Shown in pieces: positions 30,068 to 48,041 of a DNA stretch of 48,429 nucleotides (positions are counted from its first letter, which is position 1; every line of letters starts with the position of its first letter). The stretch lies in the NCBI GenBank assembly GCA_964411885.1, contig CAYPMK010000006.1:1-48429 (forward strand). The letters are read 5' to 3'. This DNA comes from an uncultured Bdellovibrionales bacterium (lineage in GTDB: Bacteria > Bdellovibrionota > JAFGOL01). The notes under the pieces are model-generated. The model was not told the origin of the DNA. It saw only the letters and a program-made list of their open reading frames with translations, and did no database searches. The position numbers and the translations under genes were made by a program.

Positions 30068-30085
30068 AATATTAACTATAACAAA

Positions 30086-30405: not shown

Positions 30406-30411
30406 GGCTTC

Positions 30412-32330: not shown

Positions 32331-32340
32331 TCTGCTACAC

Positions 32341-33519
32341 CTAGAACTTGTTGGTTAACCCAACTAAAAAGACCATCTTGCTATAACTTGCAGAAGGATC
32401 TGGACCAGTATAATACCCAAAAGAGTTATACGCATCAGAGTTAACCCATTCTGCCATGAACTTTGTAGTAAAAGAAATATTTTCTTTCAATTGTTTAACA
32501 ACAAAAAGAGGAATGGATAATTCTGTTATAAAGCCAAGTCTGTGATCAACTCTTCTAGGCGAGGCTCTATAATATCTATATATATATTGGAACTCAGAGA
32601 GACTAGCCATGCTGTCATAAATTATAGATTTAAACTCCATTGATACTTTTTCATCTACATAAAAATTAGAATAAACTGAATCATAAGCCATTCTCTCATA
32701 TATTGCAGACAAAGACGTCCTGTATGAAACAAGATCCGTTACCTTTATTCTAATAACTGGTTCATGAAAGTCTGTCCCATATTTATAATCTAAATATAAA
32801 AAACCAGCTTTTATATCCACGCTAACATCATTAGTGAGTCTGCCTATTACCCCTGTAAAACCTTCAAGATATACAGAGTCTGAATTACCGTAAGGGGCTA
32901 CATCATAACCTGCCGTATAATAAGAGCGTCCGCCTATTGCTCCCAATCTTAATGCAGTCTCTGGAAAGAAAGAATATCTAGTTTCTATATCGATATATGC
33001 TTTTCTATTATTGAAATTATCATAGATATCATCGTCATATTCTTTAATATCCATTGAAAGACCGCTTATAAATTCCCACGCCTTACTTTGCGTCTTATGA
33101 TCCATACCCGCACGAACAGAATACATGTTCCATTTAGCCCTAGTTTCTGTATCCATCAATACAGGGTCGCTATTGTTGTTATACTTGTTATTTAGATAAA
33201 AGACAGAGTCTTCGTCTGGTTTTAAACTTACTCCACCATTAAATTTCCAAGTGAACCAACTTTGTGAAGTGTTTTTAAAATATCTATTATAATCTATTCC
33301 GCCGCCGAGATTAAAAACAAATTCTCTTCTATCAAAAAAGATATCAACCTCTGGATCAACTCTCATTAAATAATCCAAACCAGAAGAAGATTCCATATAT
33401 AAACAATTCGTGTCAAAACCACCCAACAATGAAACAGAATCTTTCACATAGAATTTTCCATATGCGTTTAATGAAAACACAGTCAATAAAGCTATTATAA
33501 TTCTTAATAAAGACATCAT
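32341..33519 (-). CDS. Predicted outer-membrane beta-barrel protein (last gene of the TPR/ExbBD operon)
   Basis: Signal peptide (LLTVFSLNAYG), Tyr/Gly-rich alternating strands throughout, and a C-terminal ...LVGLTNKF. Confidence 0.55.
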   Translation of the reverse strand: MMSLLRIIIALLTVFSLNAYGKFYVKDSVSLLGGFDTNCLYMESSSGLDYLMRVDPEVDIFFDRREFVFNLGGGIDYNRYFKNTSQSWFTWKFNGGVSLKPDEDSVFYLNNKYNNNSDPVLMDTETRAKWNMYSVRAGMDHKTQSKAWEFISGLSMDIKEYDDDIYDNFNNRKAYIDIETRYSFFPETALRLGAIGGRSYYTAGYDVAPYGNSDSVYLEGFTGVIGRLTNDVSVDIKAGFLYLDYKYGTDFHEPVIRIKVTDLVSYRTSLSAIYERMAYDSVYSNFYVDEKVSMEFKSIIYDSMASLSEFQYIYRYYRASPRRVDHRLGFITELSIPLFVVKQLKENISFTTKFMAEWVNSDAYNSFGYYTGPDPSASYSKMVFLVGLTNKF

Positions 33520-34040
33520 CTGAATGGAGACCTCGCCGCTGGATAATCTTCTGGAACATTTATATCCATATTAATAAGTTCTTTCTTCTCAGAAACATCA
33601 TCTTGTATCATTTCGTTATTTGTACCAATCCTTCTAGCAACAGAGTTCTTAAGCAGACACTCCTCTATTTTAAGGTTTATATCTCCAAAAAGTCTATTTA
33701 CCTTTCTTATACGTTCTAATTCATTAAAAGCCTTAACACTAATTTTATAACAATCCATTTTGTCTATTTTGTCTAATATAGAAAAATAAGCATAATCTAT
33801 AGTCTTTAATGCTCCCAGCCCATCCCTTATACAAAACTCTTGTTCTTTCATGCCATTCTTAACTTTGCTATAAAGTTCATTTTCTGTCCTAGTAAGTATT
33901 ATTTTATTCTTTTTAATTATTTCTTTTTCTTTCTCTATTTTTTCACAAAACAAATCCTTTATTGTTGAATCTATATTGTCTTTTGAATGGAGAACATTAA
34001 AAGAGATTAACAAAGAAACAATAAATAAAAATCTAAACAA
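33516..34040 (-). CDS. Hypothetical secreted helical protein (4 Cys)
   Basis: Signal peptide MFRFLFIVSLLISFNVLHS. I recognise no family. 4-nt overlap with the downstream barrel gene. Confidence 0.5.
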   Translation of the reverse strand: MFRFLFIVSLLISFNVLHSKDNIDSTIKDLFCEKIEKEKEIIKKNKIILTRTENELYSKVKNGMKEQEFCIRDGLGALKTIDYAYFSILDKIDKMDCYKISVKAFNELERIRKVNRLFGDINLKIEECLLKNSVARRIGTNNEMIQDDVSEKKELINMDINVPEDYPAARSPFR

Positions 34041-34058
34041 ATCTCTTGTCCTCCTTAA

Positions 34059-35447
34059 TTAGTTTTGAGCCGTAAAATTCAAAGGATAGTTAACAACAAC
34101 TTCTCCCCCTTTTGGACTAGGAAATTTTATCCTTGTAAACACTCTTTGTACACAAGAAGTAAGTTCTTTGTCTTTAGCGGCAGTACCACTAAAAGACATG
34201 TTGTCAGTAGAAACACTACCACTTAAAAGAATCATGAACATAACTTTTAATTCCCCACTCAACCTTGGGTTACTCTTAAGAGCTTTATTATAGCAATACT
34301 GAAAAGCACTTACATGTTGAGAGAGTGTTTTTGCTATTATAGCTGGACTCATAGATCCAGCCCCACCCACATCTTCCTGTTGTATGTCACCCAATATATT
34401 AACAGCACCAGCATCTTGCCCTTCGCCAAAAGCAACAAGACCAGATCCTGTTGTTGTTTTCAATGAACCTATATCAACACCTTTCGCATCACCTGAACCT
34501 CTTTTAATCTTTGCTTCTTGTATTGTCGAACCAGCCCTAAGACCAGAAACACCTTTTAAGGCTTTATCTAATTTATCATTAAAACCACTTTCCTGAAAAA
34601 GATTAGCAACAGTACCGCCTCTCCCTTTTGAACCTATAATACCTATTATGCCAGCAGAGCGGACTATTTCTGACGAACTCCTTTTTACTTCAGCACCGCC
34701 ACCTGATCTTCCTTTAGAAGCTATCGTTACATCCTTGTTCCTAACATTTTTATCTTTTATTCCTCTGCCAGTGTTTTTATTATCTCTGCTTCTTAATTCA
34801 CTATTGGAAACAGCTCTTTTTTTGGTTATCTGTTCTTTTGTTGGAGGTTCTTTTTTCTTAAATGGTTCTGGTTTATCCATTATAAGCCTTGCAAATCTCT
34901 CTGGTATCTTTTCAAAATTAATTTCATTATTATTTTGATATTTAACGTTTGAGAATGAATACACTGCAAAAACATATGCAATGAGCAGGAATGATAATAT
35001 TGAAAAAAAACTTATATCAAAGTCACTAGTAATAATTCCTGCCCTAAATTCTCTTGGCAGTGTTTTCATTGTTCTTTCTGACGGATAGACCTTAAAAAGT
35101 ATGGTTTTATCCTCGAGGAACAAAATGCCCCTGGCTTCTTCTGATATAGGAATACTTACAATGTTGTCCTTAGATACAACTTCATTACTCTTCTTTATTT
35201 CTGATAAAGAAACAACATTGTCTTGTTGAAAGATCTTGCCATCCATCAGCTCACTAACGTTCACGACATATTTATCGTCTACATACTGAAAAAGAGGAAA
35301 TTTGTCATAAAAACCATCTGAGTCTATGACTATTGTATTGTCTAAAGACGTTCCTACATAAACTTCATTAAGATCATCAATAACAACTTCGTTTATTAAT
35401 CTTCCCGATCTTAAAAGTCCTATTTTTATATTAGGTATTCTATTCAT
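34059..35447 (-). CDS. Bitopic TonB-like protein with an AgmX/PglI-type C-terminal domain
   Basis: Cytoplasmic N-domain of about 135 aa, one TM helix (FFSILSFLLIAYVFAVYSF), a Lys/Arg-rich then Gly-rich linker, and a C-terminal tail ...YCYNKALKSNPRLSGELKVMF.I...G.V......SGT...KELTSCV.RVF.RIKFP.PKGGEVVVNYPL.F that resembles the TonB-C-like AgmX/PglI tail. Confidence 0.6.
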   Translation of the reverse strand: MNRIPNIKIGLLRSGRLINEVVIDDLNEVYVGTSLDNTIVIDSDGFYDKFPLFQYVDDKYVVNVSELMDGKIFQQDNVVSLSEIKKSNEVVSKDNIVSIPISEEARGILFLEDKTILFKVYPSERTMKTLPREFRAGIITSDFDISFFSILSFLLIAYVFAVYSFSNVKYQNNNEINFEKIPERFARLIMDKPEPFKKKEPPTKEQITKKRAVSNSELRSRDNKNTGRGIKDKNVRNKDVTIASKGRSGGGAEVKRSSSEIVRSAGIIGIIGSKGRGGTVANLFQESGFNDKLDKALKGVSGLRAGSTIQEAKIKRGSGDAKGVDIGSLKTTTGSGLVAFGEGQDAGAVNILGDIQQEDVGGAGSMSPAIIAKTLSQHVSAFQYCYNKALKSNPRLSGELKVMFMILLSGSVSTDNMSFSGTAAKDKELTSCVQRVFTRIKFPSPKGGEVVVNYPLNFTAQN

Positions 35448-35457
35448 TTTATATCCG

Positions 35458-35952
35458 CTATTTTTTTAGAGCCACAAATTTAAAATCATTATACTCAACT
35501 TGACCAGCTGTATACATTATCTGCCTCAACATAGAAAATGGGATGTCTTTGTCCATTTGAAGAACTATTATTCCTTCTGATTTTAGTTTTTTGTTAAAAG
35601 AAGAAATATATTTTGTTTTTTCAGCATGTTTTGACAACACATTATACAGTGGTTCTATCATAAAACCTGTTTCATCTAGGTCCATCTTTTTCACTACACC
35701 CTTGTCATGTTTAAGGACCACTCTCCCGTCTACTATTATGTTGTATCTATCTACTGTTACAGTCAACATATCTACAGGAGTTTTGCTAGAACTGCTTAAA
35801 GGAAAATCCATATACCCTGATGTTTTTATGCTATGAGAAGTTGCGGCACTGAAATTGATCAAAAGAAATATCAACAGCATTACAAACATATCTAATAGCG
35901 CTGTTATGTTTATCTCTGGTATTGTGGTGTCCCTTCTTTTTCTAATTCCCAT
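35458..35952 (-). CDS. exbD: ExbD/TolR-family protein
   Basis: Single N-terminal TM helix with INITALLDMFVMLLIFLL and a periplasmic domain of about 100 aa. Confidence 0.85.
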   Translation of the reverse strand: MGIRKRRDTTIPEINITALLDMFVMLLIFLLINFSAATSHSIKTSGYMDFPLSSSSKTPVDMLTVTVDRYNIIVDGRVVLKHDKGVVKKMDLDETGFMIEPLYNVLSKHAEKTKYISSFNKKLKSEGIIVLQMDKDIPFSMLRQIMYTAGQVEYNDFKFVALKK

Positions 35953-36473
35953 TAAACAACTCCCCCGCCTAAAACAACATTGGGGAACATCGTGGTTTTT
36001 TTCATATTACCATCTTTACCTATTTCTTTTCTTTCTCTTGATGCATCCATGGTTTGCACTATTTCTTCAAATCTTGTGTTTGAATCTGGCACTATTATTA
36101 TCGACCACTCATTTGGATAATTCTTCTTTATTTCTAAAAGTTTTGTACTCAGCAATTCATAATCATAAAGACCATTCTTCTTTTTTATTAAAGTTCCAGC
36201 TCCATCAACACTAAGTAAACCGCCTGTGCCACCGAGGACAAAACCGTCTGTGGTTATAGCTATAGTAAGGCCAAGTTTTTTCTGCTCTTGATCTTGTGTG
36301 TCCACCACACTGGTTTCTTCTGCAAAAGCAGGCAGAGAAGCATCCAAAATAACATATTCAGTAAAGCTAACAGACAATAACAACACTGGGATTACAGCAA
36401 CAATAAAATCTAGTAATGGAACAAGATTTACGTTCCTTAATGCAGCAACTTTCTTCCTTTTACCAGAAGCCAT
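35952..36473 (-). CDS. exbD: ExbD/TolR-family protein (second paralogue)
   Basis: VNLVPLLDFIVAVIPVLLL TM helix containing the conserved Asp. ATGA-type overlap with the next gene. Confidence 0.85.
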   Translation of the reverse strand: MASGKRKKVAALRNVNLVPLLDFIVAVIPVLLLSVSFTEYVILDASLPAFAEETSVVDTQDQEQKKLGLTIAITTDGFVLGGTGGLLSVDGAGTLIKKKNGLYDYELLSTKLLEIKKNYPNEWSIIIVPDSNTRFEEIVQTMDASRERKEIGKDGNMKKTTMFPNVVLGGGVV

Positions 36474-36476
36474 TCT

Positions 36477-37169
36477 TTAGACCTCGTTGTTTGGGAGTGG
36501 CGGTTGATCTTGAACAGAAGATCTATTCCTGACTGTTCTATATTGTTCAGATATAAGATTTAATACAGCCACAGAATATCTATCTACATCATCCATCATC
36601 TTGTTCGCCTTATTGGATAAATAACTATGAACAACTATGGCCGTTACAGCAACAATAAGTCCAAATGCAGTACAGTTCATTGCTTCCGCTATACCGGTCG
36701 CTAACATTTGTTGTTTTTGTGCTGGGTCTGCCGCAGACAAAGAACCAAATGACTTTATAAGACCAGTAATAGTACCCAAAAGTCCAAGCAGAGTAGACAG
36801 ATTGGCAAAAGTAGCGATAAAACTTAATCCAGACTGGATCTGTGGAACAACTTTCAACGAAGCTTCATCCATAGCCCCATCTATATCCTCTGTTGGTTTA
36901 CCAAACCTTAAAAGCCCTGCCTTTATAACTTGTGGCAAAGAAGCTCTAGGTTTTATCTGGCACATTTTTATAGCACGATCTATATTTCCAGAAGAAATAA
37001 GCTTCATTATCTGTTTCATAAATGGTTCACTATCTACAGCATAAGTGAAATAAAGTTTTATGAACCTATCAACAGATAACGCAATAACAAAAATAGCCAC
37101 AACGCCTATAGCATACATAAAGGGACCGCCTTTCTGAAATGCAACCGCTATTGTTTCATAAAAATTCAT
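36477..37169 (-). CDS. exbB: MotA/TolQ/ExbB-family proton channel
   Basis: Three TM helices and the signature segment STLLGLLGTITGLIKSF...GIAEAMNCTAFGL. Confidence 0.9.
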   Translation of the reverse strand: MNFYETIAVAFQKGGPFMYAIGVVAIFVIALSVDRFIKLYFTYAVDSEPFMKQIMKLISSGNIDRAIKMCQIKPRASLPQVIKAGLLRFGKPTEDIDGAMDEASLKVVPQIQSGLSFIATFANLSTLLGLLGTITGLIKSFGSLSAADPAQKQQMLATGIAEAMNCTAFGLIVAVTAIVVHSYLSNKANKMMDDVDRYSVAVLNLISEQYRTVRNRSSVQDQPPLPNNEV

Positions 37170-37198
37170 CTGAATTAACCTCCACTCCGTAGTATGTT

Positions 37199-37468
37199 TT
37201 AGAAAGGTTCATTATAAGTAACCTCAACTATAGCCTTAGTGTAATCATAGTCAGCAAAATTATCTCTAAAATCAATATCAGATTTCTTTATTATATAAAG
37301 TGTTCTTGGTCTGTCTATAAGACCGGTTATATCAAGTCCCTCTAGATCTACATATTGCCTTTTTTTTGATGTTGTTTTTTTGACCACCTTTTTCTTTGCA
37401 GAATAAACATCGTCACAAAAAGTAGATAAAGATACAATTAATACAATAGCCCATAAAACTCTTAACAT
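37199..37468 (-). CDS. Small secreted protein (89 aa), unknown function
   Basis: Signal peptide, Lys-rich stretch, then DLEGLDITGLIDRPRTLYII. Its position corresponds to gltF in myxobacterial clusters (positional argument only). Confidence 0.45.
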   Translation of the reverse strand: MLRVLWAIVLIVSLSTFCDDVYSAKKKVVKKTTSKKRQYVDLEGLDITGLIDRPRTLYIIKKSDIDFRDNFADYDYTKAIVEVTYNEPF

Positions 37469-37469
37469 A

Positions 37470-38585
37470 TTATTTATCCCTCTTCTGGTTAGCGATATCG
37501 TTTATATACTTAAAAACCCTGTGTGAAGGACTTATTTCTCCATTTTTAAGAGCCACATACCTTTTAAACATATCCAATGCTTCTTGTGGTTTTTTTAGAT
37601 TATCTATTAAAAATATACCATAATTAAAGCAAGCCTCTGGATATGATGGTGCATATTGTAGAGCTTTTTCATACAATTCTTTGGCTTCCAAAAACATGCC
37701 AATGTTAGAATATGCTGAAGCTAAATTAACAATAGCTTCAACCAGCCTAGGGTTTAATGATAGGGTTCTTTTAAATTCATTTATTGCTCCCTCGTTATCT
37801 CCTGAGCTCAACAAATATTCGCCTAAATTTAAATGCGTATACGGATCGTTAGGTGAGAGGTCTGTCCCTTTTTTAAGAAGATCATAGGATTGAGATCTTC
37901 CTTCTAATTTAGCTGTAACAACGCCAAGGTTGCTGTATATTGAACCGTTCTCTAACCCTTCATCTAGTGCTTTTATATATATAAACCTAGCATACTCGTA
38001 CTTACCTTTGAAGTAATAAACATTACCGAGAGTATTATATGCTGGCACAAATTTAGGGTTCTTTTTGATTATAAGCTCAGCAAGTCTTTGTGCTTGGTTG
38101 AGATCACCCAATAATATATAGATCAAAGCAGTATTGTTCATTATTACATCATTATTCGGTATGGTTTCATTAGCTTTTAGCAGCACGTTTAATGATCCGT
38201 TTTTATCACCATCCTCAAGATATGTTTTAGCGAGTAATGAATAAGCCTCTATGAATCCTTTTCTATACTTTATAGCATTTTTAAAAGCCTCTTTTGCTTT
38301 TATGTATTCATTACCATAAAGATACAAGCGCCCCATATTGAACCAAATATCAGCATCTCCCTGATCAAAAGATATTGCTTTTATAAAATTATCTTCTGAG
38401 ATCCTGTAAGTATTTAAGTCAGAATAAGAACTGCTCTCAAACTGTTTGGCTTTCTCCATTGCCAAAGAATAATAATCGTTACTAACAAGAGGTTTGCTTG
38501 TGTGCTCTTTTACAATCAAGTCCTTCTTTGTTGAACAAGAAAACAATATCAAAGGCAATGTAAAAATAATAATTTTTATATTCAT
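37470..38585 (-). CDS. TPR-repeat lipoprotein
   Basis: Lipobox-like LILFSC, followed by about 8 TPR units (W/Y..LG..Y...G.Y..A...F.KAL...P pattern). Confidence 0.8.
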   Translation of the reverse strand: MNIKIIIFTLPLILFSCSTKKDLIVKEHTSKPLVSNDYYSLAMEKAKQFESSSYSDLNTYRISEDNFIKAISFDQGDADIWFNMGRLYLYGNEYIKAKEAFKNAIKYRKGFIEAYSLLAKTYLEDGDKNGSLNVLLKANETIPNNDVIMNNTALIYILLGDLNQAQRLAELIIKKNPKFVPAYNTLGNVYYFKGKYEYARFIYIKALDEGLENGSIYSNLGVVTAKLEGRSQSYDLLKKGTDLSPNDPYTHLNLGEYLLSSGDNEGAINEFKRTLSLNPRLVEAIVNLASAYSNIGMFLEAKELYEKALQYAPSYPEACFNYGIFLIDNLKKPQEALDMFKRYVALKNGEISPSHRVFKYINDIANQKRDK

Positions 38586-41500
38586 CTGCCCACAAACCCA
38601 TAGTCCTGTATATCCAAAGAAGGACTATTAACATAGATTGTTTCTTTCTTTTCGCCATATTGTGTTGGCCTTAAATATTTTAATCTTCTATATGCATACT
38701 TTGTCCATACATTAACTGTTTTAAGACGAGCAGACTCAGATATTGTTTTTTCATAGTTTTCAACGGCCTTGTCCTCATATGGTAAAGCCTGAGTCCTTAT
38801 TTGATTATCATACTCTCTTTTTAACTCCACTGTGTTAATCTCTTTTGGAACAGGTATACCATACAAAAACTCTGCAAATCTATCAAAACCAAGCCCAATC
38901 ATATAGAGTGAGGCCAAAGACCACTCTGTAACACCAAGTTTAACAACACCAAGATAATCGTCTGTCAACTTGTTTAGCAATCTTTCTTTTTTATCATAAG
39001 TGCTCTTTAGTTTTGAATAATCATAATCATTTATTTTAATCGATAAATATTCGTTAAATGTTTTGTTCAATACTTTAAATTTTGCTTCAGCATTATAATC
39101 AGAAGCAACGGTGTCATTTATTCCCTTAGATGATTTGAACAAGTTTATTGCTTTATTATAAAAAGTCATGGCCTGACTTATGTTACCTGCTTTTTCATAA
39201 ATACGAGCAGTTTTAACATATGACTCCATCACACCATCAAGATCTGTTTTGTTCCTTTCTGCATAAGATGAATATATAGATATAGCATTCTTATCTTTTT
39301 TGCTTTTCTCATATAACCAAGCTGCCTGCATTAAGGCGTTAGATCTTTCTCTTATGTTAGTTCTTGATGCAGAATATACAACAAGATGTTCTGCCGCCTT
39401 AACATACTCATCTTTTGATCTACGTATCCTGTATGAATTATAGTGGCTGTCAGAAACATATTTGGAAGCAGGATGTTTTTTAATTAGTAATTCATAATAA
39501 TATAATGCTTTATTAAAATTAAGGTCTTGTTCTAGAGAAACAGCTAATCTAAACATCGCATCTGCAGAATATTTACTTCTAGGATATTTAGACAGCATCG
39601 TTCCATAAACAGAACTAGCACTCTTATATTTACCTGTTTTTTCATATATAACACCTGCATTATATAGAGCAGCATCTGAATACTCCGATTTAGGATATTG
39701 TTTAGCCAATCTTACATACTCATCTGCTGCAGCGACAGACTTGCCTTCGCTCTCTAATTTTTGTGCACTTTTAAAAACAGATCCTGTCATTAAACTTTTT
39801 ATTTCTTCAGAATTATAACTAGAAGTAGCTATATTTTTAGACGAAAGGAGTTTATTGCTCCAGTATTCTACTTCTTTATAATCCTTCTTGTAATTATATA
39901 TAGATATAAGATTCCTAATAGAATCTCCATAAAATTTTGAGTTAGGATACTTATTTACTATGTTTTTATAACCAACTACAGCATCATCAAATCTATTATT
40001 CCTAAAATATACCTCTGATTTCATATAAGACACTTCATCCAGCCTATAACCTGTTGGATTAAGTTCTTCGTATTTATTACATGAGTCCACTAAAGATTTC
40101 TCTAGTTCACCAAGATTGTTGGCAAGAATAAGATCTCCGCTCTTACTCAATAGAGGTTTTATTTCTTTTGTATAATATTTTTTGTCCGTAGATTTAAGCT
40201 TTGCTTGCAAGGCTGAAACAACACCAAACGAACTTTTTTCTTTATATTGATCGTCAGTAGAATAATTTCTTACTGCAGTATACTCATTTGCCGCACCACC
40301 ATAGTCTCTTAAATTAAAGAGAACTTGGGCATAATTATAACGAGCACCTATCATTAGAGGATCTGAAGGATGTTTTTTTAGAAAATCATAGTATAATTTT
40401 GCAGCTGCAATGTATTCACTCCTTTTTCCTGTTTGGTCACCTTTTTCTTGATGGTACATCGCTACAGAGATAAGTTGTTTTTCTATGAGGCTGTCCGCGG
40501 TCATTACAGCTTTTAGGTTTTCTATATTTCTTGCTCTCCACAAAGAGCCATCACCAAAAAGTGTTATCATCTTTTCTCTTTCTTGGTTCATATCTGCGTA
40601 GCTATCATATTTTCTAAGGTCGCTTATTAATTTATCTTGTAAAACAGGGTTCTCTGGGTGATCTGGATATTTAGACAAAACAAAAGAAACAGAAGACCTT
40701 GCTTCTTTAACCCTGTCCGACATGATATACAGCTCACATATTTTGGTCATTATTTCATATTCATAATTTTTACCACCGACGTTATTAAAGAATGAATATG
40801 CATCTTTAATTCCATTGCCTGACTCAGAAAAACCAACGGCTATATAATTCTTCGCTTCTGTTTTAAAAGTATTACTATAATCATAACCATGCTTTTTATC
40901 TATAGAGTCTATCAGTGTAACAAAAAAATCTGCTGATTCATTTATTTTTCCTCTGCTGTAGTATATCCATCCAAGTTTATAAAGAACGTTCTCATAATAA
41001 ACAGAATCTGGATAATTTAGAACCATAGAGTAATAAGATATGGCGGTATCAAAATCATCCATGTCAAAATAATTTTCTCCGAGTCTTGTATATATTTCTG
41101 GCAATCTTTCGCTATTTGGGAATTCATTTATTATCTGTCTAAATACAGGAACAGCTTTTCCCATCTGGCCTTCTTCAAAATAAGCATAACCAAGCAAATA
41201 CATTGCATCATCTCTATATCTATAATCTTTATAATTATTAATAAGTTTTGTTAAAACCCCTACGGCTAAAGAATAATCTATATTAGGTTCTGGCGGCAGG
41301 ACTTGAACTTCTCCTCTTATAAATTTTTGATATTCTTTTTCATATGACTCGGTGTCTCTTATCAATTTTTGTGATGCGTCTTCATAATAGAGTTTTCCAA
41401 GCCTATACAAAACGTCTGGGACATGGTCACTGTTAGGATATTCCCTCAGGTAATTCTCAAAAGATTCTATACTAAGTTTCCTGTTTGACTCTTCTAGTAC

Positions 41501-41716
41501 CTCTATGTTCTCAACCCTTCCTTCAAAAGATTCTTCTAAATCTATTTTCTTAAGCGTTCTTTGCCTAGCTATAATACTATCTATTTCATTAACAAACTCT
41601 TTTGAACTTTTATAAAAATCAGCCTTAGCGTCTCTAAGCTCCTGACAAAATGAATTATCTAAGAACAAGAACGGGGCAATAATAAATATAATAGTTCTTT
41701 TAAACATCTTAATCAT
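38582..41716 (-). CDS. Large (about 1040 aa) secreted TPR-repeat protein (start 41716 or 41707)
   Basis: Signal peptide MFKRTIIFIIAPFLFL. It has many YbgF/BamD-like TPR units (e.g. YPNS....DALY.LG..Y) along its full length. Confidence 0.8.
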   Translation of the reverse strand: MIKMFKRTIIFIIAPFLFLDNSFCQELRDAKADFYKSSKEFVNEIDSIIARQRTLKKIDLEESFEGRVENIEVLEESNRKLSIESFENYLREYPNSDHVPDVLYRLGKLYYEDASQKLIRDTESYEKEYQKFIRGEVQVLPPEPNIDYSLAVGVLTKLINNYKDYRYRDDAMYLLGYAYFEEGQMGKAVPVFRQIINEFPNSERLPEIYTRLGENYFDMDDFDTAISYYSMVLNYPDSVYYENVLYKLGWIYYSRGKINESADFFVTLIDSIDKKHGYDYSNTFKTEAKNYIAVGFSESGNGIKDAYSFFNNVGGKNYEYEIMTKICELYIMSDRVKEARSSVSFVLSKYPDHPENPVLQDKLISDLRKYDSYADMNQEREKMITLFGDGSLWRARNIENLKAVMTADSLIEKQLISVAMYHQEKGDQTGKRSEYIAAAKLYYDFLKKHPSDPLMIGARYNYAQVLFNLRDYGGAANEYTAVRNYSTDDQYKEKSSFGVVSALQAKLKSTDKKYYTKEIKPLLSKSGDLILANNLGELEKSLVDSCNKYEELNPTGYRLDEVSYMKSEVYFRNNRFDDAVVGYKNIVNKYPNSKFYGDSIRNLISIYNYKKDYKEVEYWSNKLLSSKNIATSSYNSEEIKSLMTGSVFKSAQKLESEGKSVAAADEYVRLAKQYPKSEYSDAALYNAGVIYEKTGKYKSASSVYGTMLSKYPRSKYSADAMFRLAVSLEQDLNFNKALYYYELLIKKHPASKYVSDSHYNSYRIRRSKDEYVKAAEHLVVYSASRTNIRERSNALMQAAWLYEKSKKDKNAISIYSSYAERNKTDLDGVMESYVKTARIYEKAGNISQAMTFYNKAINLFKSSKGINDTVASDYNAEAKFKVLNKTFNEYLSIKINDYDYSKLKSTYDKKERLLNKLTDDYLGVVKLGVTEWSLASLYMIGLGFDRFAEFLYGIPVPKEINTVELKREYDNQIRTQALPYEDKAVENYEKTISESARLKTVNVWTKYAYRRLKYLRPTQYGEKKETIYVNSPSLDIQDYGFVGR

Positions 41717-43094
41717 CACGCCCTTTATATTTACTATCAAGATCTTCTATTATTTTTTGTTTGTTCTCTTGAATATTTTTTATCTTTTTACTCTGCTCTT
41801 CTTTTGTCTTCCATGTTATGTCTATTTTGCCAAGTTGTGCTTTAAGCCCAATATCGTCCAGCCTGCTGTTTATTATCTTTATTGTTGAAGCTATGTAAGA
41901 TTTCAAATATCTATTCATTATATTCCTTAAAGCAATGAATTGGATATCCTGATCAGTATATTTATCTCTTGTCTTAGAGTTAATGATTGCTTCAACTCTT
42001 TTGTCTAAGGCAAAATAAACACTAAGGGACCTTCTCAGGTAATCCTTTTCTTTGGTTGTTAACCATTCTCTAAAAGCTCTGGAATATGTTGCATCGTTGT
42101 TAAAAAGAGCAAAGTTTATATTGGTGTCTACGGACATAGGTGAACCATCTTTATATGGATGTGATAAGACTTTAGTTAGATCATCAGATAACTTAAATTT
42201 ATTTATTTCATCAGCAAATATTTTTTTGATACCTGAATATTCTGTCAAGACTTCGTCAAAGATCTTGTTTGCCTCTTCATACATATTGTTTTCCATGTAT
42301 ATATAGCCACGGATAGTTTTAACTTTCATAAAATCAAACTCAGATATATCTTCGCTATAGTCTGCGCTTAATTTTTGCTTATCCCAATCTCTATCGTCTA
42401 ACAAAGAAATAGCTTCTAAATGATATAGTGCTTTTTCGTAATCCTTTTTGCTAATCATCAACATACCCATCTCATATAATGACCTTAAATAATATGGAGA
42501 GATAGCGTCTATCAACTGATAAGACATCAAAGCTTCATTAAATCTACCAAGTAATACCAAAACCCTTGCTTTACCTATTGTAGCAAGATCAACAACATCT
42601 TTTGTATTGTAATCACTCTTATAATTAGAAAGTTTATCAAACAACAGTAAAGCATTTTTGTATTTTTTATTAATAACAAAACAAGAAGCCTTTATATATT
42701 GTCCCTTAAAATAATATGGCATTTCTTTATCTAAACTGTCTATAAACTTCGTGCTAAGATCACAATCCCCTTCATGAAAAGACATTTTGGCTATTTTATA
42801 TATTATAGAAGATCTAGCTTCAGATCTTATATTTTTAAAATCTTTTGAATTATCTATAACATATTTAAAAAGGGCTGTGTCTGAATTTTGTTCTGCTATA
42901 TCCACAAGCCTCGATATGGCGTGTGAATAAACAACTCCCTGAGATGTTTTTGCCACATCCTTAAATATATATTCTGCCTGAAAAAGATCTCCGTTTATAA
43001 AATAGGATTCTGCCCTAGTGGATATGTCTGACCCCTGAGAATAAGAAAAAGAACTATGAAAACAAACTATCGCTGTGATAATAAAATATTTCAT
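41709..43094 (-). CDS. Secreted TPR-like / helical-repeat protein with a C-terminal coiled-coil
   Basis: Signal peptide MKYFIITAIVCFHSSFSYSQ. Repeated A..Y/F..A helical hairpins and a charged C-terminal helix (KTKEEQSKKIKNIQENKQKIIEDL). Confidence 0.55.
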   Translation of the reverse strand: MKYFIITAIVCFHSSFSYSQGSDISTRAESYFINGDLFQAEYIFKDVAKTSQGVVYSHAISRLVDIAEQNSDTALFKYVIDNSKDFKNIRSEARSSIIYKIAKMSFHEGDCDLSTKFIDSLDKEMPYYFKGQYIKASCFVINKKYKNALLLFDKLSNYKSDYNTKDVVDLATIGKARVLVLLGRFNEALMSYQLIDAISPYYLRSLYEMGMLMISKKDYEKALYHLEAISLLDDRDWDKQKLSADYSEDISEFDFMKVKTIRGYIYMENNMYEEANKIFDEVLTEYSGIKKIFADEINKFKLSDDLTKVLSHPYKDGSPMSVDTNINFALFNNDATYSRAFREWLTTKEKDYLRRSLSVYFALDKRVEAIINSKTRDKYTDQDIQFIALRNIMNRYLKSYIASTIKIINSRLDDIGLKAQLGKIDITWKTKEEQSKKIKNIQENKQKIIEDLDSKYKGRDD

Positions 43095-43765
43095 TATTGC
43101 TCTATTCTCTCCGGCATTTTATTTTGTAATTGGGTTTCAAATTTCATAGCAGGTCTATCTTTAAAAGATGTAAAGATTCCACCTTTTTCATAGCTTATAC
43201 CCGAGATTAAAACTTTTTTGTTATCTGGGATCACAAAAGAATACCTGTCTTGGACCTTTATTTTGTAATCTTTCAAATAATCAAATACACCACTCGCACT
43301 ACCAGATACAACTGCTTCTACAACAAGTTCATGATGACCTGGGTTAATAAAGGAACTTAAAATGGAGGCATCTTGTTTGTCTTGGTTAACATCAAAAACA
43401 GAATATATACTTTTGCCATCTAATATATATTTCAGACTCATTATGTTAAACCTTGAGCTCATTTTATTAACGTGAGAAATAGACAAATATGATACAGGAG
43501 CAGTGTTTAGACCATCTTTAGATACTTCCATTAATTTTGATTTAGAATCAAGGACTTTGTCTCTCATAGATTCTATTTTTTCTTTTATAGCCTGAACATC
43601 CATTGACTTTATTTTATTTATTTCAGCAGGATCAACTTTATATTTTGTTGAATTATCGTCTAAAGTAAAAACTGTAGCTTTTTTATCTTGCACCTGCCCA
43701 TCACATATAGCAGGTAAACTAATTAAACAAATTAATAAAACAAAAAATTTATATGATCTTAGCAT
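43094..43765 (-). CDS. Hypothetical secreted protein
   Basis: Signal peptide LRSYKFFVLLICLISLPAIC, an N-terminal helix, and a beta-rich C-terminal half. ATGA overlap with the next gene. Confidence 0.5.
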   Translation of the reverse strand: MLRSYKFFVLLICLISLPAICDGQVQDKKATVFTLDDNSTKYKVDPAEINKIKSMDVQAIKEKIESMRDKVLDSKSKLMEVSKDGLNTAPVSYLSISHVNKMSSRFNIMSLKYILDGKSIYSVFDVNQDKQDASILSSFINPGHHELVVEAVVSGSASGVFDYLKDYKIKVQDRYSFVIPDNKKVLISGISYEKGGIFTSFKDRPAMKFETQLQNKMPERIEQ

Positions 43766-44963
43766 AATCATTTATACCCCTTATATTTTCTATTAGGTCC
43801 TTTGGCATCCTTATCTTGGCCCCTTTTGGCATTACTGCGTCTGTTTCAAAAGCCATTCTTGATATTGCTGGATTATACCTTTTTATTTGGTCCATATCCA
43901 TCCCTAACAATGCCTCTAATTGAGATAATTTTAAAGGTCTTGTCAGTTGAACCGCTTTGTATTTGGTACTATCAGCTTGGCTAATATCCCCGAAAAATTT
44001 ATTTTTGTTCAGGTCCAGATATAGAACAGCAAGAAAACCAGCATAAAAATTCTTTGATGCAAAACCAAAAGTGTTACTATTGTAGTTCTTAACAATAGTT
44101 GATATATCTTTACTACCAACCCTATCAACAATTCTTTTCATACCAAAACGTCCATGATTATATGACGTAATGGCAAGAGGCCATTCATTCCAAAGATATT
44201 CATAACTCTGTTTTAATAATTTAGCTGCCGCATAAGTAGATGCTACAGGATCCTTTCTTTCGTCATAATGCTTTGAAACTTTCATATATTCTTTTGCTGT
44301 GCCTTTCATAAATTGCCAAATACCTGCGGCATTCCTTGGTGAAACAGCCATCGGGTTATAATAAGATTCAACATAAGGTATTCTGGCTAGCTCCAAAGGA
44401 AGACCTTGTTCATTCAAGACGTTTTCTATGTCTTCTATGTAAAGTTGACTATAATATATAGCCTCTCTAAAACTAGACATCTGCCCTTTTTGAGCTCTTA
44501 TTCTTCCGGGTCTTGCCGCTTCAATAAATTTATTATTATCATCAATATTTTTAAATTTAAGAAACACTTCCTTCGATTCTTGACTCAGATGATCGTCTTC
44601 ATTAGACAAAGACAACTCTTTAAGGATAGAAGAATACTTATTCTTTATTATACTAACCCTACTATCTATTATTTCATCTTTGATATCAGAAGAAAGATCT
44701 TTAACAAGATCAAGATCTGAAACATCAACTACATCATAAACAACAAAGGTGTCTGTGTCGTGTATGACTATTTGATTAACATCGTATTTAGAATATATGT
44801 CTATCCAAAAATCAACAGCTCTTTCTAGTCCTTTTGGTACAACAAAATTATCAGTTATTTTACTCCCCTTTACATGCTTTGAATAATATTCACCAATATT
44901 GCCAAAAACATTAAAAGAAAGAACCATATAAAAAAGAACAAAGATGTAATGTTTCTTAAACAT
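43749..44963 (-). CDS. Lytic transglycosylase (SLT domain) with a C-terminal LysM, MltD-like
   Basis: Catalytic-region motif ESYYNPMAVSPRNAAGIWQFM...YN.G. C-terminal LysM-like segment YKAV...LSQLEALLGMDMDQIKRYNP. Confidence 0.85.
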   Translation of the reverse strand: MFKKHYIFVLFYMVLSFNVFGNIGEYYSKHVKGSKITDNFVVPKGLERAVDFWIDIYSKYDVNQIVIHDTDTFVVYDVVDVSDLDLVKDLSSDIKDEIIDSRVSIIKNKYSSILKELSLSNEDDHLSQESKEVFLKFKNIDDNNKFIEAARPGRIRAQKGQMSSFREAIYYSQLYIEDIENVLNEQGLPLELARIPYVESYYNPMAVSPRNAAGIWQFMKGTAKEYMKVSKHYDERKDPVASTYAAAKLLKQSYEYLWNEWPLAITSYNHGRFGMKRIVDRVGSKDISTIVKNYNSNTFGFASKNFYAGFLAVLYLDLNKNKFFGDISQADSTKYKAVQLTRPLKLSQLEALLGMDMDQIKRYNPAISRMAFETDAVMPKGAKIRMPKDLIENIRGINDYAKII

Positions 44964-46359
44964 CTTTTTCTCCCGTAATAAATTTTTCTAATATCCTGCT
45001 TTCCCAGTTAGTCATGTTGTTTGCCTTAGGATCGTTAACGACTATTATAAAAGCATACACTGTTCTTTCTCCAGAAACATATCCAGCCAACGATCTTACT
45101 CCGCTGAGCGTTCCTGTTTTAGCTCTAATTTTACCTTTAACATTAGCCCCAGCGTGAGTCCTTCTTATAGTTCCATCTATACCTGATATTGGAAGGCTGT
45201 TTATAAACTCTGGCCCTGTTTGAAAATCATCATAAACACTTGCTAAAAATTTTACGAAATCAGAAGGTTTCGTTCTATTCATTCTTGAAAAACCAGAGGC
45301 ATTAACGACCTCAAAAGAATTTGGATCAAGGCCGATTTCTCTAACATAATCTCTCATTAATTCAGAAAAGGCTTTCTCATCTACAACGCCTTTTAATTTA
45401 TATACAAAAGCCCTCATTAACTGTTCAGATATAAAATTATTGCTGAATTTGTTCATTTCGACCAAGATATCGTTAAGTCTTCTGGAGTCCATTTCAAAAA
45501 GAACTTTTTCACGTGAAGACACTTTCCCAGAACGGACATCACCGTTTAACTGCATATCTCTCCACGACATATGCAGTAATAAAACTTCTTTAAAATAAGA
45601 GACTGGATCATCTATGTTCCTGTATGTTGTTTTAAGTGAGTATTCCCTGCTATCTATGTTGCCAGAAACAACTATATCATCTGATATACGTCTTATTTCC
45701 ACATCATTCTTTGATGGACTGTTATGTGTTTTGTCTAACAATCCAATACTGGATACTTTCGGATCGATGGAAACATGTGGCACATCTCCAGATACAACAT
45801 TTACGGCTATAGAATTAAAATTAACAGAAAGAGCGGAGACTTTTGAGTTGTATGCCCTATCTCCATCCTCTTCATATATGTTTTTTGCCGAGAACATCGT
45901 GTTATCTAAAATAATATCGCCTTCTATAGATCTAACACCGATGTTATATAGCGTATTCACCAAATACCACATGTTCTCTGAAACAAATAAAGGATCTCCA
46001 TTTCCTTTTATATATATATCACCCTTCACTATTCCGTCTTTATTTGGTGTTTTACCACTAATTATCGTCTTAAATCTAAAATCCTGCCCCAAATACTTAA
46101 GACTAGCTCCTGTTATAAGTAATTTATTAACAGACGCTATGCTAAATAATTTATCTGAATTAAAAGAATAAACTTGTTTCTTGTTCTTTATGTCATAAAC
46201 AGCTATTCCAAGATTTTTACTCTTTATACCAGTACTTTTAAGTGCTTTTTCTAATATAAGATCATTGTTGCTCTGAGCGTTGATAACAGAGCAATAAAAC
46301 ACGACAAGAGCTGATAGAACTTGGAACATAAACAAGATACCCCTATATAATAATAACAA
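44956..46359 (-). CDS. dacB: PBP4-family D-Ala-D-Ala carboxypeptidase/endopeptidase (DacB-like)
   Basis: SxxK (SVNK in FSIASVNKL) and KTG (KTGTLSGVRSLAGY) motifs. About 460 aa, with a signal peptide. Confidence 0.85.
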   Translation of the reverse strand: MLLLYRGILFMFQVLSALVVFYCSVINAQSNNDLILEKALKSTGIKSKNLGIAVYDIKNKKQVYSFNSDKLFSIASVNKLLITGASLKYLGQDFRFKTIISGKTPNKDGIVKGDIYIKGNGDPLFVSENMWYLVNTLYNIGVRSIEGDIILDNTMFSAKNIYEEDGDRAYNSKVSALSVNFNSIAVNVVSGDVPHVSIDPKVSSIGLLDKTHNSPSKNDVEIRRISDDIVVSGNIDSREYSLKTTYRNIDDPVSYFKEVLLLHMSWRDMQLNGDVRSGKVSSREKVLFEMDSRRLNDILVEMNKFSNNFISEQLMRAFVYKLKGVVDEKAFSELMRDYVREIGLDPNSFEVVNASGFSRMNRTKPSDFVKFLASVYDDFQTGPEFINSLPISGIDGTIRRTHAGANVKGKIRAKTGTLSGVRSLAGYVSGERTVYAFIIVVNDPKANNMTNWESRILEKFITGEKDV

Positions 46360-46393
46360 TAGGGATGCTAATTGTCTATATCAATACCATTAA

Positions 46394-47302
46394 CTATTTC
46401 CAAGTTTCTCTTTGAAGGGCAGGATCTGGCCAGCCGTCGTTATAATTAAATGGATTTATCTCTTCTACCCCATACTTAAGGGTTTCAACAACACTAACAA
46501 TAAAACGCCATTTCATTCTTACATACCCGTCTTCTTCTATCATACCCTCTGGTGGATTATGAAAAGGACTCGCATAAGAAAAAGCTTTGCCGGGAGCCTC
46601 GTCTATACCACTAACACCAGAACTCCTTAGCACAACCATTTTAATAAAAGAACCATCTCTATCAAGAACAGCCTCTACCTCTGTAATATAATCTTTTTTA
46701 CCAAGATTTTTCTTAACATCAGGGTGTTTTTCAACATATTCGGAAACATATCTGTTCCACATATAAACGACTGAATCCTGAACCCTTCTATAAAAAGAAT
46801 AATAAACAAATTCTGCTGTATTAAGCATTGTTTTGTCTCCGGGTCTTATGCCGGGAAGATAATCATAGGTAGTTGATTCGCCGTAATCATCCCCATCGCC
46901 TTGTACTTTTTTTTGTTTGCGTCCTTTAATGTACGAGCTTATAGCTTCGTCCAGATCTTGTTCTAATATGGTTTGGACTCCACTCATCCTGTTCTTTGGT
47001 TTTCCCCAAGAATTTGCACGAGTTTCTATATCAACCCTTTTGTTCACCTTGCTCAAAAAACGAGCATTAGGGTTTGCTTCTTCATCCCCTTTTTCATCAT
47101 CTATGGAAACTATCTGCCTTCTTATTTGATCTGCATCAACGACATAAACATCCATTGGTGCTTTTAATTTCTCTGGCAAATATTTCACCAACAAAAAATC
47201 CCCAATAAACAGATACAATAATATTAAATGTATAAGGGTTGATAGGATTATGCATTCAACCCAATTACGTCTAAAAAAATCTTTTTTATTCTCTTTCATC
47301 AT
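46394..47302 (-). CDS. TonB C-terminal-domain-like membrane-anchored protein (start uncertain)
   Basis: One N-terminal TM helix (WVECIILSTLIHLILLYLF). The C-terminal region resembles TonB_C (ITEVEAVLDRDGSFIKMVVLRSSGVSGIDEA...A....PFHNPP). Confidence 0.5.
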   Translation of the reverse strand: MMKENKKDFFRRNWVECIILSTLIHLILLYLFIGDFLLVKYLPEKLKAPMDVYVVDADQIRRQIVSIDDEKGDEEANPNARFLSKVNKRVDIETRANSWGKPKNRMSGVQTILEQDLDEAISSYIKGRKQKKVQGDGDDYGESTTYDYLPGIRPGDKTMLNTAEFVYYSFYRRVQDSVVYMWNRYVSEYVEKHPDVKKNLGKKDYITEVEAVLDRDGSFIKMVVLRSSGVSGIDEAPGKAFSYASPFHNPPEGMIEEDGYVRMKWRFIVSVVETLKYGVEEINPFNYNDGWPDPALQRETWK

Positions 47303-48041
47303 AAAAGATCTCTTCAAGATACAATGCATACGCTGGAGCTGTTATGCCTGCCTTGCGTCTATCTTTTGATTCCAACATATTCACAACATCCTGTACGCCA
47401 TATCTGCCAATGCCTACTTCTACCACTGTGCCAACAATGTTTCTTATCATGTGTTTTAAAAAGCCATTGCCGGTAAAACTTATGTTCATTTCGTGGCCAT
47501 CTTGTTTTATGTCTATGGCGTATATATTCCTTATCGTCGTTTTTACTTCAGTTCCTGAGCCCATAAAGGCTTTAAAATCTTTTTCACCAATAAAAAGGTC
47601 AAAAGCCTTTAACATATCGTTTTTATTAAGCTTATATTTAAGCCACCAAACTCTGTTTATATAAAAAGGGCTCCTTATTGGAGCATTACTTATACGATAC
47701 GTATATTTCTTTTTTAAAGCCTTCCTTGCATCAAACTCTGGTCCACACACTTTAACATCAAGGATACTTATGTCTGGAGGGAGTTGTGTGTTTAATATTT
47801 TTTGCATTCTTTCTGCGCTGTATTCAGATTCACATTTAAAACTTGCGGCCTGACCATATGCATGTACTCCAGCATCTGTTCTGCTCGGGTATCTTAAAGT
47901 TATTTGCTTACCAAAGACTTTAAATAAAAGATTCTCTATAACACCCTGTATCGTGGGTTTACCTGGTTGTGTTTGCCAGCCAACATAACCTGTTCCATCA
48001 TACGATATTGTTAATTTATAATTAATCTCCATTTCTACCAA
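47286..48041 (-). CDS. truA: tRNA pseudouridine(38-40) synthase TruA
   Basis: YDGT.Y.GWQ.Q and catalytic RTDAGVHA motifs. About 250 aa. Confidence 0.9.
   Translation of the reverse strand: MVEMEINYKLTISYDGTGYVGWQTQPGKPTIQGVIENLLFKVFGKQITLRYPSRTDAGVHAYGQAASFKCESEYSAERMQKILNTQLPPDISILDVKVCGPEFDARKALKKKYTYRISNAPIRSPFYINRVWWLKYKLNKNDMLKAFDLFIGEKDFKAFMGSGTEVKTTIRNIYAIDIKQDGHEMNISFTGNGFLKHMIRNIVGTVVEVGIGRYGVQDVVNMLESKDRRKAGITAPAYALYLEEIFYDERE

Follow-up and report, generated by a model that had tools for sequence, protein, structure and literature searches.

A candidate G4-like member of the Agl-Glt/Nfs class of envelope machines, encoded together with its motor genes in a Bdellovibrionales contig

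What kind of machine is encoded by a run of genes in which large tetratricopeptide repeat (TPR) proteins, an ExbB/ExbD-type motor, a single-span transducer and an outer-membrane beta-barrel stand side by side? The question is raised by eleven minus-strand genes in a 48,429-nucleotide contig of an uncultured Bdellovibrionales bacterium (GCA_964411885.1, CAYPMK010000006.1; hereafter the window, meaning the whole stretch of DNA that was analysed), whose proteins are 99–100% identical to those of a contig in the metagenome-assembled genome (MAG) ‘Bdellovibrionales bacterium UR.bin187’ (JAKIZQ01). An earlier note, made from the sequence alone, had proposed a proton-driven envelope machine resembling the core of the Agl-Glt apparatus. 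Our comparisons uphold this proposal: the transducer is GltG/AgmX-like, a TPR lipoprotein is GltE-like, two further proteins can be linked to GltC and GltF, and the gene order recurs in distant lineages. Together they support placing the locus in the Agl-Glt/Nfs class, as a relative of the gliding and spore-coat machines of Myxococcus. To our knowledge, no bacterial machine outside the Agl-Glt/Nfs class is known to transmit motor force processively across the entire envelope.

The eleven genes and their likely identities

Numbered p1–p11 in the direction in which they are transcribed (43771 to 32341), the genes are:

43094..43771, minus strand: p1, secreted protein of 225/223 aa, a helix followed by a transthyretin-like beta-sandwich (AlphaFold2 model); unannotated family
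41709..43094, minus strand: p2, secreted TPR protein of 461 aa, shortened GltC-like (weak Pfam TPR matches)
38582..41707, minus strand: p3, secreted TPR protein, GltD-like putative scaffold (TPR_6, E 2.5e-43)
37470..38585, minus strand: p4, TPR lipoprotein of 371 aa, GltE-like (NCBIfam gliding_GltE, E 2.3e-23)
37199..37468, minus strand: p5, secreted protein of 89 aa, GltF (CglF)-like by a transitive profile link
36477..37169, minus strand: p6, TolQ/ExbB/AglR-like proton channel subunit of 230 aa (Pfam MotA_ExbB, 97.2 bits)
35952..36473, minus strand: p7, first TolR/ExbD-like subunit (paralogue family 1), 173 aa (Pfam ExbD)
35458..35952, minus strand: p8, second TolR/ExbD-like subunit (paralogue family 2), 164 aa (Pfam ExbD)
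34059..35447, minus strand: p9, GltG-like bitopic transducer of 462 aa (NCBIfam gliding_GltG, E 3.3e-37)
33516..34040, minus strand: p10, secreted protein of 174 aa, lineage-specific (open reading frame and orthologs)
32341..33519, minus strand: p11, predicted outer-membrane beta-barrel of 392 aa ending in F (AlphaFold2 model)

All eleven open reading frames (ORFs) stand where the earlier note had placed them. They are real genes rather than chance ORFs, because each has a colinear ortholog, at about 30–70% protein identity, in seven independent contigs (L002, L003, L008, L013, L015–L017; loci with L numbers are contigs of relatives used for comparison, and are mostly metagenomic). The relatives are labelled Oligoflexia, Proteobacteria or plain ‘bacterium’, and word-indexed searches with p9, p11 and p1 returned uncultured relatives only, none of the homologues bearing the name of a cultured organism; a scan of genome contigs made with p9 alone matched just the source MAG. 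Comparisons with the named Glt, G4, Bd and Wzp proteins rest throughout on NCBIfam models, published tables and synteny.

Residues 26–459 of p9 align with positions 225–646 of the 650-position gliding_GltG model, and its tail matches myxo_SS_tail, the C-terminal domain of AgmX/PglI, at 77.1 bits against a cut-off of 40. The AgmX/PglI tail that had been suspected from the sequence is therefore present by NCBIfam, above cut-off; ordinary TonB_C is not matched, nor is any other Pfam family even at E ≤ 10. The protein consists of a short cytoplasmic domain, one membrane helix (at about 138–168), a Lys/Gly/Ser-rich periplasmic linker and the AgmX/PglI domain, and its conserved motifs are IPERFARLI, GIIGIIGSKG and FQYCYN. 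In GltG, the region matched by p9 runs from the membrane-proximal FHA-like domain through the membrane helix and the periplasmic linker to the TonB-C-like domain, and this region is predicted to dock on AglR and GltD (PMC11761067). Because the equivalog cut-off of the model (650 bits) is not reached, p9 is best read as a GltG paralogue. A PDB sequence search with p9 gave nothing usable.

Immediately upstream of p9 lie the motor genes. The core complex has an AglR-type subunit, here supplied by p6, and two adjoining TolR/ExbD-like subunits, here p7 and p8; Pfam bears out the MotA_ExbB and ExbD domains that the earlier note had read in them, as it does the TPRs of p2–p4. The top NCBIfam match of p6 is TolQ, at 75.5 bits far below the cut-off of 221, and p7 and p8 score 17.7–21.7 bits with the TolR models, against cut-offs of 127–162. 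The only similarity between p7 and p8 found by BLASTP is a local one, 25% over 32 residues. In nine distant loci, the first ExbD gene scores 57–113 bits with a profile hidden Markov model (HMM) of p7 and 4–21 bits with that of p8, whereas the second scores 60–126 bits with the p8 HMM and < 8 bits with that of p7. On these scores, p7 and p8 are anciently distinct paralogues whose order has been kept in the nine loci, and two such families fit an AglQ/AglS-type heterodimer inside an AglR pentamer.

Both p7 and p8 have an Asp in the membrane helix. The p7 residue is likewise Asp in L002 and L008; the p7 orthologue in L003 (8986–9504) has Asn at this position, which is that of the proton-binding Asp of TolR/ExbD, and so does the first ExbD of eight of the nine distant loci (L004–L006, L020, L022–L024 and L027; in L021 the sequence displayed covers just the beginning of the motif). 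The p8-type paralogue keeps its membrane Asp in orthologs and distant homologues wherever the helix was displayed. Because the first paralogue mostly carries Asn and the second retains Asp, an asymmetric heterodimer of the p7/p8 type is suggested for most of the relatives.

Upstream of the motor genes, p2–p5 encode the putative periplasmic scaffold. The GltE-type TPR lipoprotein is p4: its residues 27–363 are colinear with positions 35–373 of the 411-position gliding_GltE model, at a score below cut-off and no better than those of other TPR models, and its lipobox Cys is kept in four orthologs. The largest protein, p3, is 1041 aa long from the ATG at 41707, or 1052 aa from a TTG (38582–41740), and contains five YbgF/CpoB-type TPR stretches (168.7 bits, NCBIfam). 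Its HMM gives full-length colinear matches to the 1181–1206-aa proteins of L004, L005 and L006 (E 1e-110 to 1e-146). It fits GltD by size, signal peptide, TPR content and position, with no match to a GltD-specific model, and its size and position agree with those of the GltD homologues in Table S3 of Luciano 2011 (PMC3169522). The earlier note had held that TPR proteins matching unrelated families, with no conserved synteny, would speak against a Glt-type assignment; p3 does match CpoB/YbgF and BamD models, but synteny with Glt-type clusters is kept.

The links of p2 and p5 are transitive. The GltC model does not match p2 directly; the p2 HMM matches a 788-aa protein of L006 (E 2e-26), that protein matches NCBIfam gliding_GltC (E 6e-20), and the position of p2 is the same in all loci compared. 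Similarly, the model for CglF, which is GltF (PMC4488436), matches p5 directly only at E 0.12, while the p5 HMM matches the 87-aa protein of L004 (E 3e-11) and the 86-aa protein of L005 (E 6e-12), and the CglF model matches the small proteins of L004 (E 2e-5) and L006 (E 2e-4). These syntenic intermediates support reading p2 and p5 as GltC-like and GltF-like respectively.

The first gene, p1, matches no Pfam or NCBIfam family. Its modelled C-terminal domain has a predicted local distance difference test score (pLDDT) of ∼85–94; Foldseek with the model returned only generic transthyretin-like and fimbrial beta-sandwich matches (E ∼3e-3), and a PDB search with the p1 profile gave nothing usable. 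A profile search nevertheless found 1057 representatives at E ≤ 1e-3, mostly of 220–300 aa, and in all three contexts seen outside the lineage (L005, L006 and L007) GltC/GltD-like genes are immediately preceded by one of the p1 family. As judged from these contexts, the p1 family is a widespread, unannotated first gene of this type of cluster. In L006, two p1-family genes adjoin (9230–12589), one encoding 249 aa and the other 862 aa with five tandem beta-sandwich domains. We also considered whether p1 and p2 might be a split GltC, Bd0828 being listed as a GltC homologue, and gave this up, since the GltC model matches neither p1 nor the five-repeat protein of L006.

At the other end of the cluster, p11 was modelled as a barrel without a plug (pLDDT 84, predicted template modelling score 0.77); counting each of two kinked strands as one gives 18 long strands. 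Foldseek gave its best E-values with the larger, 22-stranded barrels of TonB-dependent transporters; descent from such receptors was considered and set aside, coverage and size fitting 18-stranded Occ/OprD-type barrels better, and the best same-size match by TM-score was to the OccK2/OprD type (0.50/0.52). A PDB search with the p11 profile gave nothing usable. Pfam PF10082 is matched at 20.8 bits, under the cut-off of 23.7, and five of the 22 family members match it; the C-terminal GLTxK[FY] is conserved. A 469-aa barrel encoded in L004 shows a weak profile link to p11 (hhalign probability 34%) and shares with it the motif FFPxTAL. We suggest from these matches that p11 and the Wzp/EpsX-class polysaccharide porins may be relatives. 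GltA, GltB and GltH are small OmpA-like barrels (PMC4488436, bioRxiv 2020.07.22.216333), and because p11 has 392 aa and 18 strands it is not of their type; the 392-aa protein ending in F of the earlier note is thus predicted to be a barrel, as the note had it, and is porin-like rather than GltA/B/H-like.

Between p9 and p11 stands p10, which has no family or PDB match and whose orthologs are confined to the same lineage. In L004 no counterpart of p10 separates the GltG-like gene from that of the 469-aa barrel, which comes immediately after it. The possibility that p10 is a degenerate outer-membrane polysaccharide export (OPX) protein was rejected, there being no Poly_export or SLBB signal in it.

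Gene order in relatives and the surroundings of the cluster

The full block is kept in the seven contigs that carry all eleven orthologs, with gene-for-gene conservation extending to relatives at 45% identity, and the core order in L004, L005, L006 (a Myxococcota MAG), L020–L024 and L027. The synteny with Glt/Agl-type clusters foreseen by the earlier note is therefore found, the same order recurring in Myxococcota and in other MAGs. L004–L006 have the order GltC-D-E-F with three motor genes between GltF and GltG, as in the window, and the window lies nearer to them (p3 at the E-values given above; p9 E 7e-58, in L004 only) than to L020–L024 (HMM values of ∼1e-79 for p3 and ∼1e-38 for p9).

Two of these sets carry polysaccharide export genes. 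The order in L004 is the GltG-like gene, the 469-aa barrel and then a 215-aa OPX lipoprotein, to which the closest PDB entry is M. xanthus WzaB (9N9A, E 1e-36; Escherichia coli Wza reaches 4e-15). In L020–L024, an OPX gene directly follows the GltG-like gene. The L022 cluster (986–19932) is a distant version lying inside a Wzx/Wzy-type polysaccharide locus, as are those of L020, L021, L023 and L024; its order is two TPR proteins of ∼1000–1170 aa, a GltF-like protein, motor genes, a GltG-like protein of ∼350 aa and then the OPX protein, past which L022 encodes a Wzc-like kinase and four glycosyltransferases or methyltransferases. The GltG-like protein of L020, the only one scanned in L020–L024, has a Pfam TonB_C domain. 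In L027 (7547–12526), the GltG-like gene is followed by one for a 1659-aa surface-repeat protein (DUF11, SdrD_B, CarboxypepD_reg), a candidate adhesin cargo.

Three genes precede p1 in the window:

46394..47329, minus strand: bitopic TonB-family protein of 311 aa (Pfam TonB_2, 20.9 bits; cut-off 22)
44956..46359, minus strand: PBP4-type D-Ala-D-Ala carboxypeptidase/endopeptidase of family S13 (Pfam Peptidase_S13, E 2.8e-71)
43749..44963, minus strand: secreted lytic transglycosylase, SLT (Pfam SLT, E 2.9e-24)

PBP4 lies directly upstream of SLT in L002, L003, L008 and L015–L017, the SLT orthologs at the same place in L002 and L003 are 48–49% identical, and the pair directly precedes p1, in overlapping reading frames, in every lineage member inspected. 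Outside the lineage, a class A penicillin-binding protein gene is found upstream in L005, no such gene in L006 or L007, and a PBP4-like gene 7 kb away in L020. A precedent exists in M. xanthus, where the attachment of gliding complexes to the wall depends on the lytic transglycosylase AgmT (PMC11444678), and it had been noted earlier that no Glt protein has a wall-modifying domain (PMC4488436). The upstream PBP4 and SLT may locally remodel peptidoglycan for the complex, a lead that takes its weight from the lineage-wide linkage.

The 311-aa protein has one membrane helix with the motif SxxxH, both in the window and in L008, and SxxxH in a membrane helix is a signature of TonB/TolA. Its L008 ortholog passes the TonB_2 cut-off (23.3 bits), and there too the gene stands between those of TruA and PBP4, L008 being the only relative in which the upstream region is covered. 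The window thus holds a TonB-family protein 2.6 kb upstream of the cluster. It could be a second transducer for the p6–p8 motor, or could serve another motor elsewhere in the genome.

The junctions within the cluster are tight. The earlier note had reported ATGA-type overlaps at p1/p2, p3/p4 and p7/p8 and a four-base overlap at p10/p11: p3/p4 (38582–38585) and p10/p11 (33516–33519) do share four bases, as ATGA in both cases, but p1/p2 (at 43094) and p7/p8 (at 35952) share one base only (TAATG), and the other gaps among p1–p11 are of 1–29 nt. Tight packing was thus seen correctly, but the ‘eleven-gene operon’ of the earlier note is an assumption, because the packing runs on at both sides and the minus strand holds nearly all genes from 4.8 to 48 kb. 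All gaps are ≤ 34 nt from TruA (48041) to RNase J (30693); PBP4 and SLT overlap by 8 nt, SLT and p1 by 23 nt, and RNase J begins 10 nt past p11. A promoter scan (71 sites against 84 in shuffled sequences) and a terminator scan (11 against 7.7, barely above the shuffles) were uninformative about the limits of the operon. The sole strong terminator-like hairpin in the region scanned (30000–48429) is at 30037–30067 on the minus strand, with a 12-bp stem, ∼630 nt past the end of RNase J, and transcription of the cluster may therefore read through RNase J. Base composition is uniform across the window (G+C 0.31–0.37), and there is accordingly no sign of a recently acquired island.

Farther away in the window are a phosphate uptake set and a hydrogenase module. 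The former (4785–13484) encodes a PstS-like binding protein, two permeases, an ATPase and PhoU, and beside it are a Porin_5 protein (9015–10172, plus strand), a sensor kinase/response regulator pair, an outer-membrane phospholipase A1 (12702–13484) and a nine-repeat WG_beta_rep protein (13488–14648). The latter (14693–29839, minus strand) is a group-4-type membrane-bound [NiFe] hydrogenase module, with the NiFe large subunit/49-kDa, 30-kDa, 20-kDa, NADHdh and 4Fe-4S subunits, three Mrp-type antiporter-like subunits and an MbhD-like subunit; maturation genes alongside encode HypB-like, HypD, HypE-like and HypF proteins and a HycI protease.

Possible output of the machine

Starting from the homologies, gene order and conservation observed, we infer the protein contacts of the following scheme. 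By analogy with TolQR and with the AglR5QS model, p6 would form a channel ring around the p7/p8 heterodimer, and proton flow would drive a conformational or rotary cycle. The motor would act on the membrane helix of p9 and on its flanking cytoplasmic domain, and the p9 linker and AgmX/PglI domain would bind the TPR scaffold of p3, p4, p2 and p5; contacts between AglR5QS and GltG, and between GltD and GltG, belong to a published model (PMC11761067). The scaffold would reach the outer membrane at p11, with p1 and p10 as accessory periplasmic parts. The output is less certain: a surface polymer, or some other outer-membrane cargo, might be moved or exported, comparable to the spore-coat polysaccharide of Agl-Nfs, which handles a Wza-exported polymer (PMC3858216).

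We consider that handling of a surface polymer or of outer-membrane cargo by this mechanism is probable, if by no means secure, and favour it over gliding, Tol-like and TonB-like roles. A surface polymer is preferred because of the plugless 18-stranded barrel predicted for p11, with its PF10082-type signal, the WzaB-like gene of L004, the OPX genes of L020–L024, the kinase and glycosyltransferase genes of L022, the normal gliding of a G4 mutant and the precedent of Agl-Nfs. The lead is also prompted by M. xanthus, in which the biosurfactant polysaccharide export genes wzaB/wzpB are MXAN_1915/1916 (PMC9603273, PMC12819527) and so lie, by tag numbers, about three genes from the G4 cluster, MXAN_1919–1923. 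This closeness is a lead and not a test, and we found no comment on it in the literature searched.

Several observations weigh against this interpretation. No gene for an OPX protein, polysaccharide co-polymerase, flippase, polymerase or glycosyltransferase was found in the window or within ≤ 10 kb in close relatives, and the link of p11 to the Wzp porins is weak, both PF10082 and hhalign giving the low values reported above. The linkage to PBP4 and SLT has been seen in this lineage only. Because all equivalog scores of the window proteins with the Glt models (83–128 bits) are far below the NCBIfam cut-offs (225–650 bits), the Glt-like proteins are distant paralogues and not orthologues. Finally, the host phylum includes a proven glider, in which the gliding machinery has yet to be identified and Glt-like clusters are candidates (PMC3169522, PMC13104615).

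The last point leads to the strongest rival, that the locus is the gliding engine of this Bdellovibrionota lineage, in which the motor would pull an adhesion complex of the outer membrane along the cell. Bdellovibrionales is the label of the source MAG, and Bdellovibrio bacteriovorus glides and has four expanded Glt/Agl clusters (PMC3169522), one of which, Bd0828–0838, starts with a gene for a 240-aa protein that resembles p1 in size and position, as read from Table S3 by size and not by sequence. The locus also appears to contain all ‘core’ components together with a GltF-like protein, and an adhesin-looking repeat protein follows the related cluster of L027. On the other hand, the potential-glider set of Luciano 2011 consists of AglRQS with GltD, E, F, G, C, A and B (PMC3169522), and no GltA/GltB-type small OmpA-like barrel, GltH, GltK or VWA adhesin is found in the locus or the 48-kb window, where the one barrel of the cluster, p11, is 18-stranded. 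All four Bdellovibrio clusters, furthermore, carry a GltB homologue that the window cluster does not have. The gene order matches the G4 type, and M. xanthus mutants in the G4 GltD homologue (MXAN_1922) and in the AglQ homologue of the M2 motor glide normally (PMC3169522); the M2 mutant also sporulates normally (PMC3858216). Gliding keeps some standing because the phylum includes a glider whose engine is still unidentified (PMC13104615), and we regard it as unlikely without dismissing it.

A second rival, raised by the earlier note, is a divergent surrogate of Tol-Pal that would couple inner-membrane energy to outer-membrane tethering and peptidoglycan remodelling at division. The best NCBIfam match of p6 is TolQ, p3 has its five YbgF/CpoB-type stretches, and the conserved neighbours (PBP4, the lytic transglycosylase and the TonB/TolA-like SxxxH protein, with a class A penicillin-binding protein in L005) would suit such a role. 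The TolB beta-propeller and Pal, an OmpA_C lipoprotein, are, however, encoded by none of the window ORFs in a Pfam scan that covered those of ≥ 110 aa plus p5; this agrees with the earlier note, which had seen no TolB, Pal or TonB-dependent receptor in the window. The locus encodes a pair of distinct TolR paralogues where Tol-Pal has a single TolR, p9 is of the GltG type and not TolA-like, and the TolQ score falls far short of its cut-off. In other lineages, clusters of this type occur together with polysaccharide export genes, and Myxococcota and Bdellovibrio have ordinary Tol-Pal systems too. The surrogate thus finds little support, and we think it very improbable. An ExbB-ExbD-TonB energy system for outer-membrane import is the least credible reading of all, and can scarcely be entertained: the ExbB and ExbD Pfam domains, the TonB_2-domain protein upstream and the TonB_C domain of the L020 protein would fit it, but no 22-stranded plugged receptor of the kind that such systems use was found among the window ORFs scanned with Pfam, p11 is plugless and too small, p9 has an AgmX/PglI tail and no TonB_C match, and the four large periplasmic TPR proteins would be left without a role in uptake by TonB.

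Returning to surface-polymer or cargo handling, a bolder combination of the leads can be drawn. The lineage might have inherited a complete kit for crossing the envelope, with PBP4 and SLT as its own cutters, a second TonB-like transducer, and a scaffold docked on a Wzp-like porin that works without an OPX protein; in this joint form we find the proposal decidedly doubtful. If it were true, the kit would use proton flow to extrude or spread a surface polymer, with the p1 family as an unnamed universal subunit. By extension, the orphan G4 and M2 clusters of Myxococcus would work with the neighbouring WzpB/WzaB translocon for biosurfactant polysaccharide.

In the literature that we found, from 2011 on, no function has been assigned to the non-gliding relatives (core complexes, G4, G5 and M2). 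The present locus and its relatives offer a compact, single-locus version of the machine with the motor included, and they draw attention to the p1 family, a conserved subunit with about a thousand representatives and no annotation. They tie the cluster type to polysaccharide export genes across lineages and to peptidoglycan hydrolases in one, and so raise two questions: whether Myxococcus G4 and M2 act on biosurfactant polysaccharide secretion, and how such complexes pass the cell wall, the latter already posed by the AgmT result. For annotation, strings of ‘ExbB/ExbD/TPR/hypothetical’ genes of this shape are to be taken for Glt-type machines, not for TonB or Tol.

Comparison with known systems

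With the Agl-Glt and Agl-Nfs machines of M. xanthus, the window cluster shares an AglR-type channel with its two TolR-like partners and a GltG-type transducer that ends in the AgmX/PglI domain; a putative TPR scaffold like that of GltD/E/C, a small GltF-like protein and the envelope-spanning design would be further common features. The Agl-Glt parts absent from the window are the OmpA-like barrels GltA/B/H, GltK, the CglB adhesin, GltI/J, AglZ and MglA. The clusters of B. bacteriovorus (Bd0414–0420, Bd0828–0838, Bd1474–1481 and Bd2369–2377) come under the same phylum label and likewise have GltC/D/G and AglRQS in single loci; unlike the window, each combines its GltB homologue with another gene order.

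The class-3 OPX/Wzp translocons (WzaB-WzpB, EpsY-EpsX and ExoA-ExoB) and AlgK-AlgE, the latter a TPR lipoprotein paired with an 18-stranded porin, would resemble the window cluster, with its predicted p11 barrel, in having an 18-stranded barrel with periplasmic or lipoprotein partners. They differ in that the window has no Poly_export/SLBB protein, and the sequence link of p11 to the class-3 porins is sub-threshold.

Luciano 2011 defined a core of AglR, Q and S with GltD, E, G and C, which is present in non-gliders and expanded in Myxococcales and Bdellovibrio (PMC3169522). The core complexes of Gammaproteobacteria, Geobacter and Fibrobacter, like the clusters of L020–L024, resemble the window in that the genes for large TPR proteins, for a GltF-like protein, for the three motor subunits and for a TonB-like GltG stand in a single locus. 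L020–L024 differ in their GltG-like protein of ∼350 aa and the OPX gene directly after it, whereas the window has no OPX, Wzc-like kinase or glycosyltransferase genes.

The earlier note was right in matching the locus to the core layout, and the nearest layout is that of the G4 type rather than of the gliding clusters G1/G2. Table S3 lists G4 of M. xanthus (MXAN_1919–1923) with sizes of 447, 91, 490, 1111 and 809 aa, and also Haliangium Hoch_6494–6498 (PMC3169522). Read by size, both have the order GltC-D-E-F-G of the window; the MXAN genes were assigned by these table sizes, the columns of the table seeming to run in opposite directions. Sizes in G4-type clusters (GltD ∼1100–1200, GltE 420–490, GltF 90–120 and GltG 450–490 aa) are mostly similar to those in the window, and in both the GltG-like protein has no long N-terminal FHA region. 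GltC is the exception, p2 with its 461 aa being much shorter than MXAN_1923 (809 aa) or the proteins of L005–L007 (788–841 aa). The motor of M2 (MXAN_3003–3005) is encoded apart from G4, whereas the motor genes of the window lie inside the cluster, between GltF and GltG; moreover, the window cluster is led by a p1-family gene, and p10 and the 18-stranded barrel follow the GltG-like gene. In gene order, GltC-D-E-F…GltG, the locus thus matches a little-studied, G4-like subtype of the class, into which an AglRQS-like motor of its own has been inserted. Its variant features are the p1-family subunit, the lineage-specific p10, the internal motor genes, the short GltC, the 18-stranded barrel and the linked peptidoglycan enzymes.

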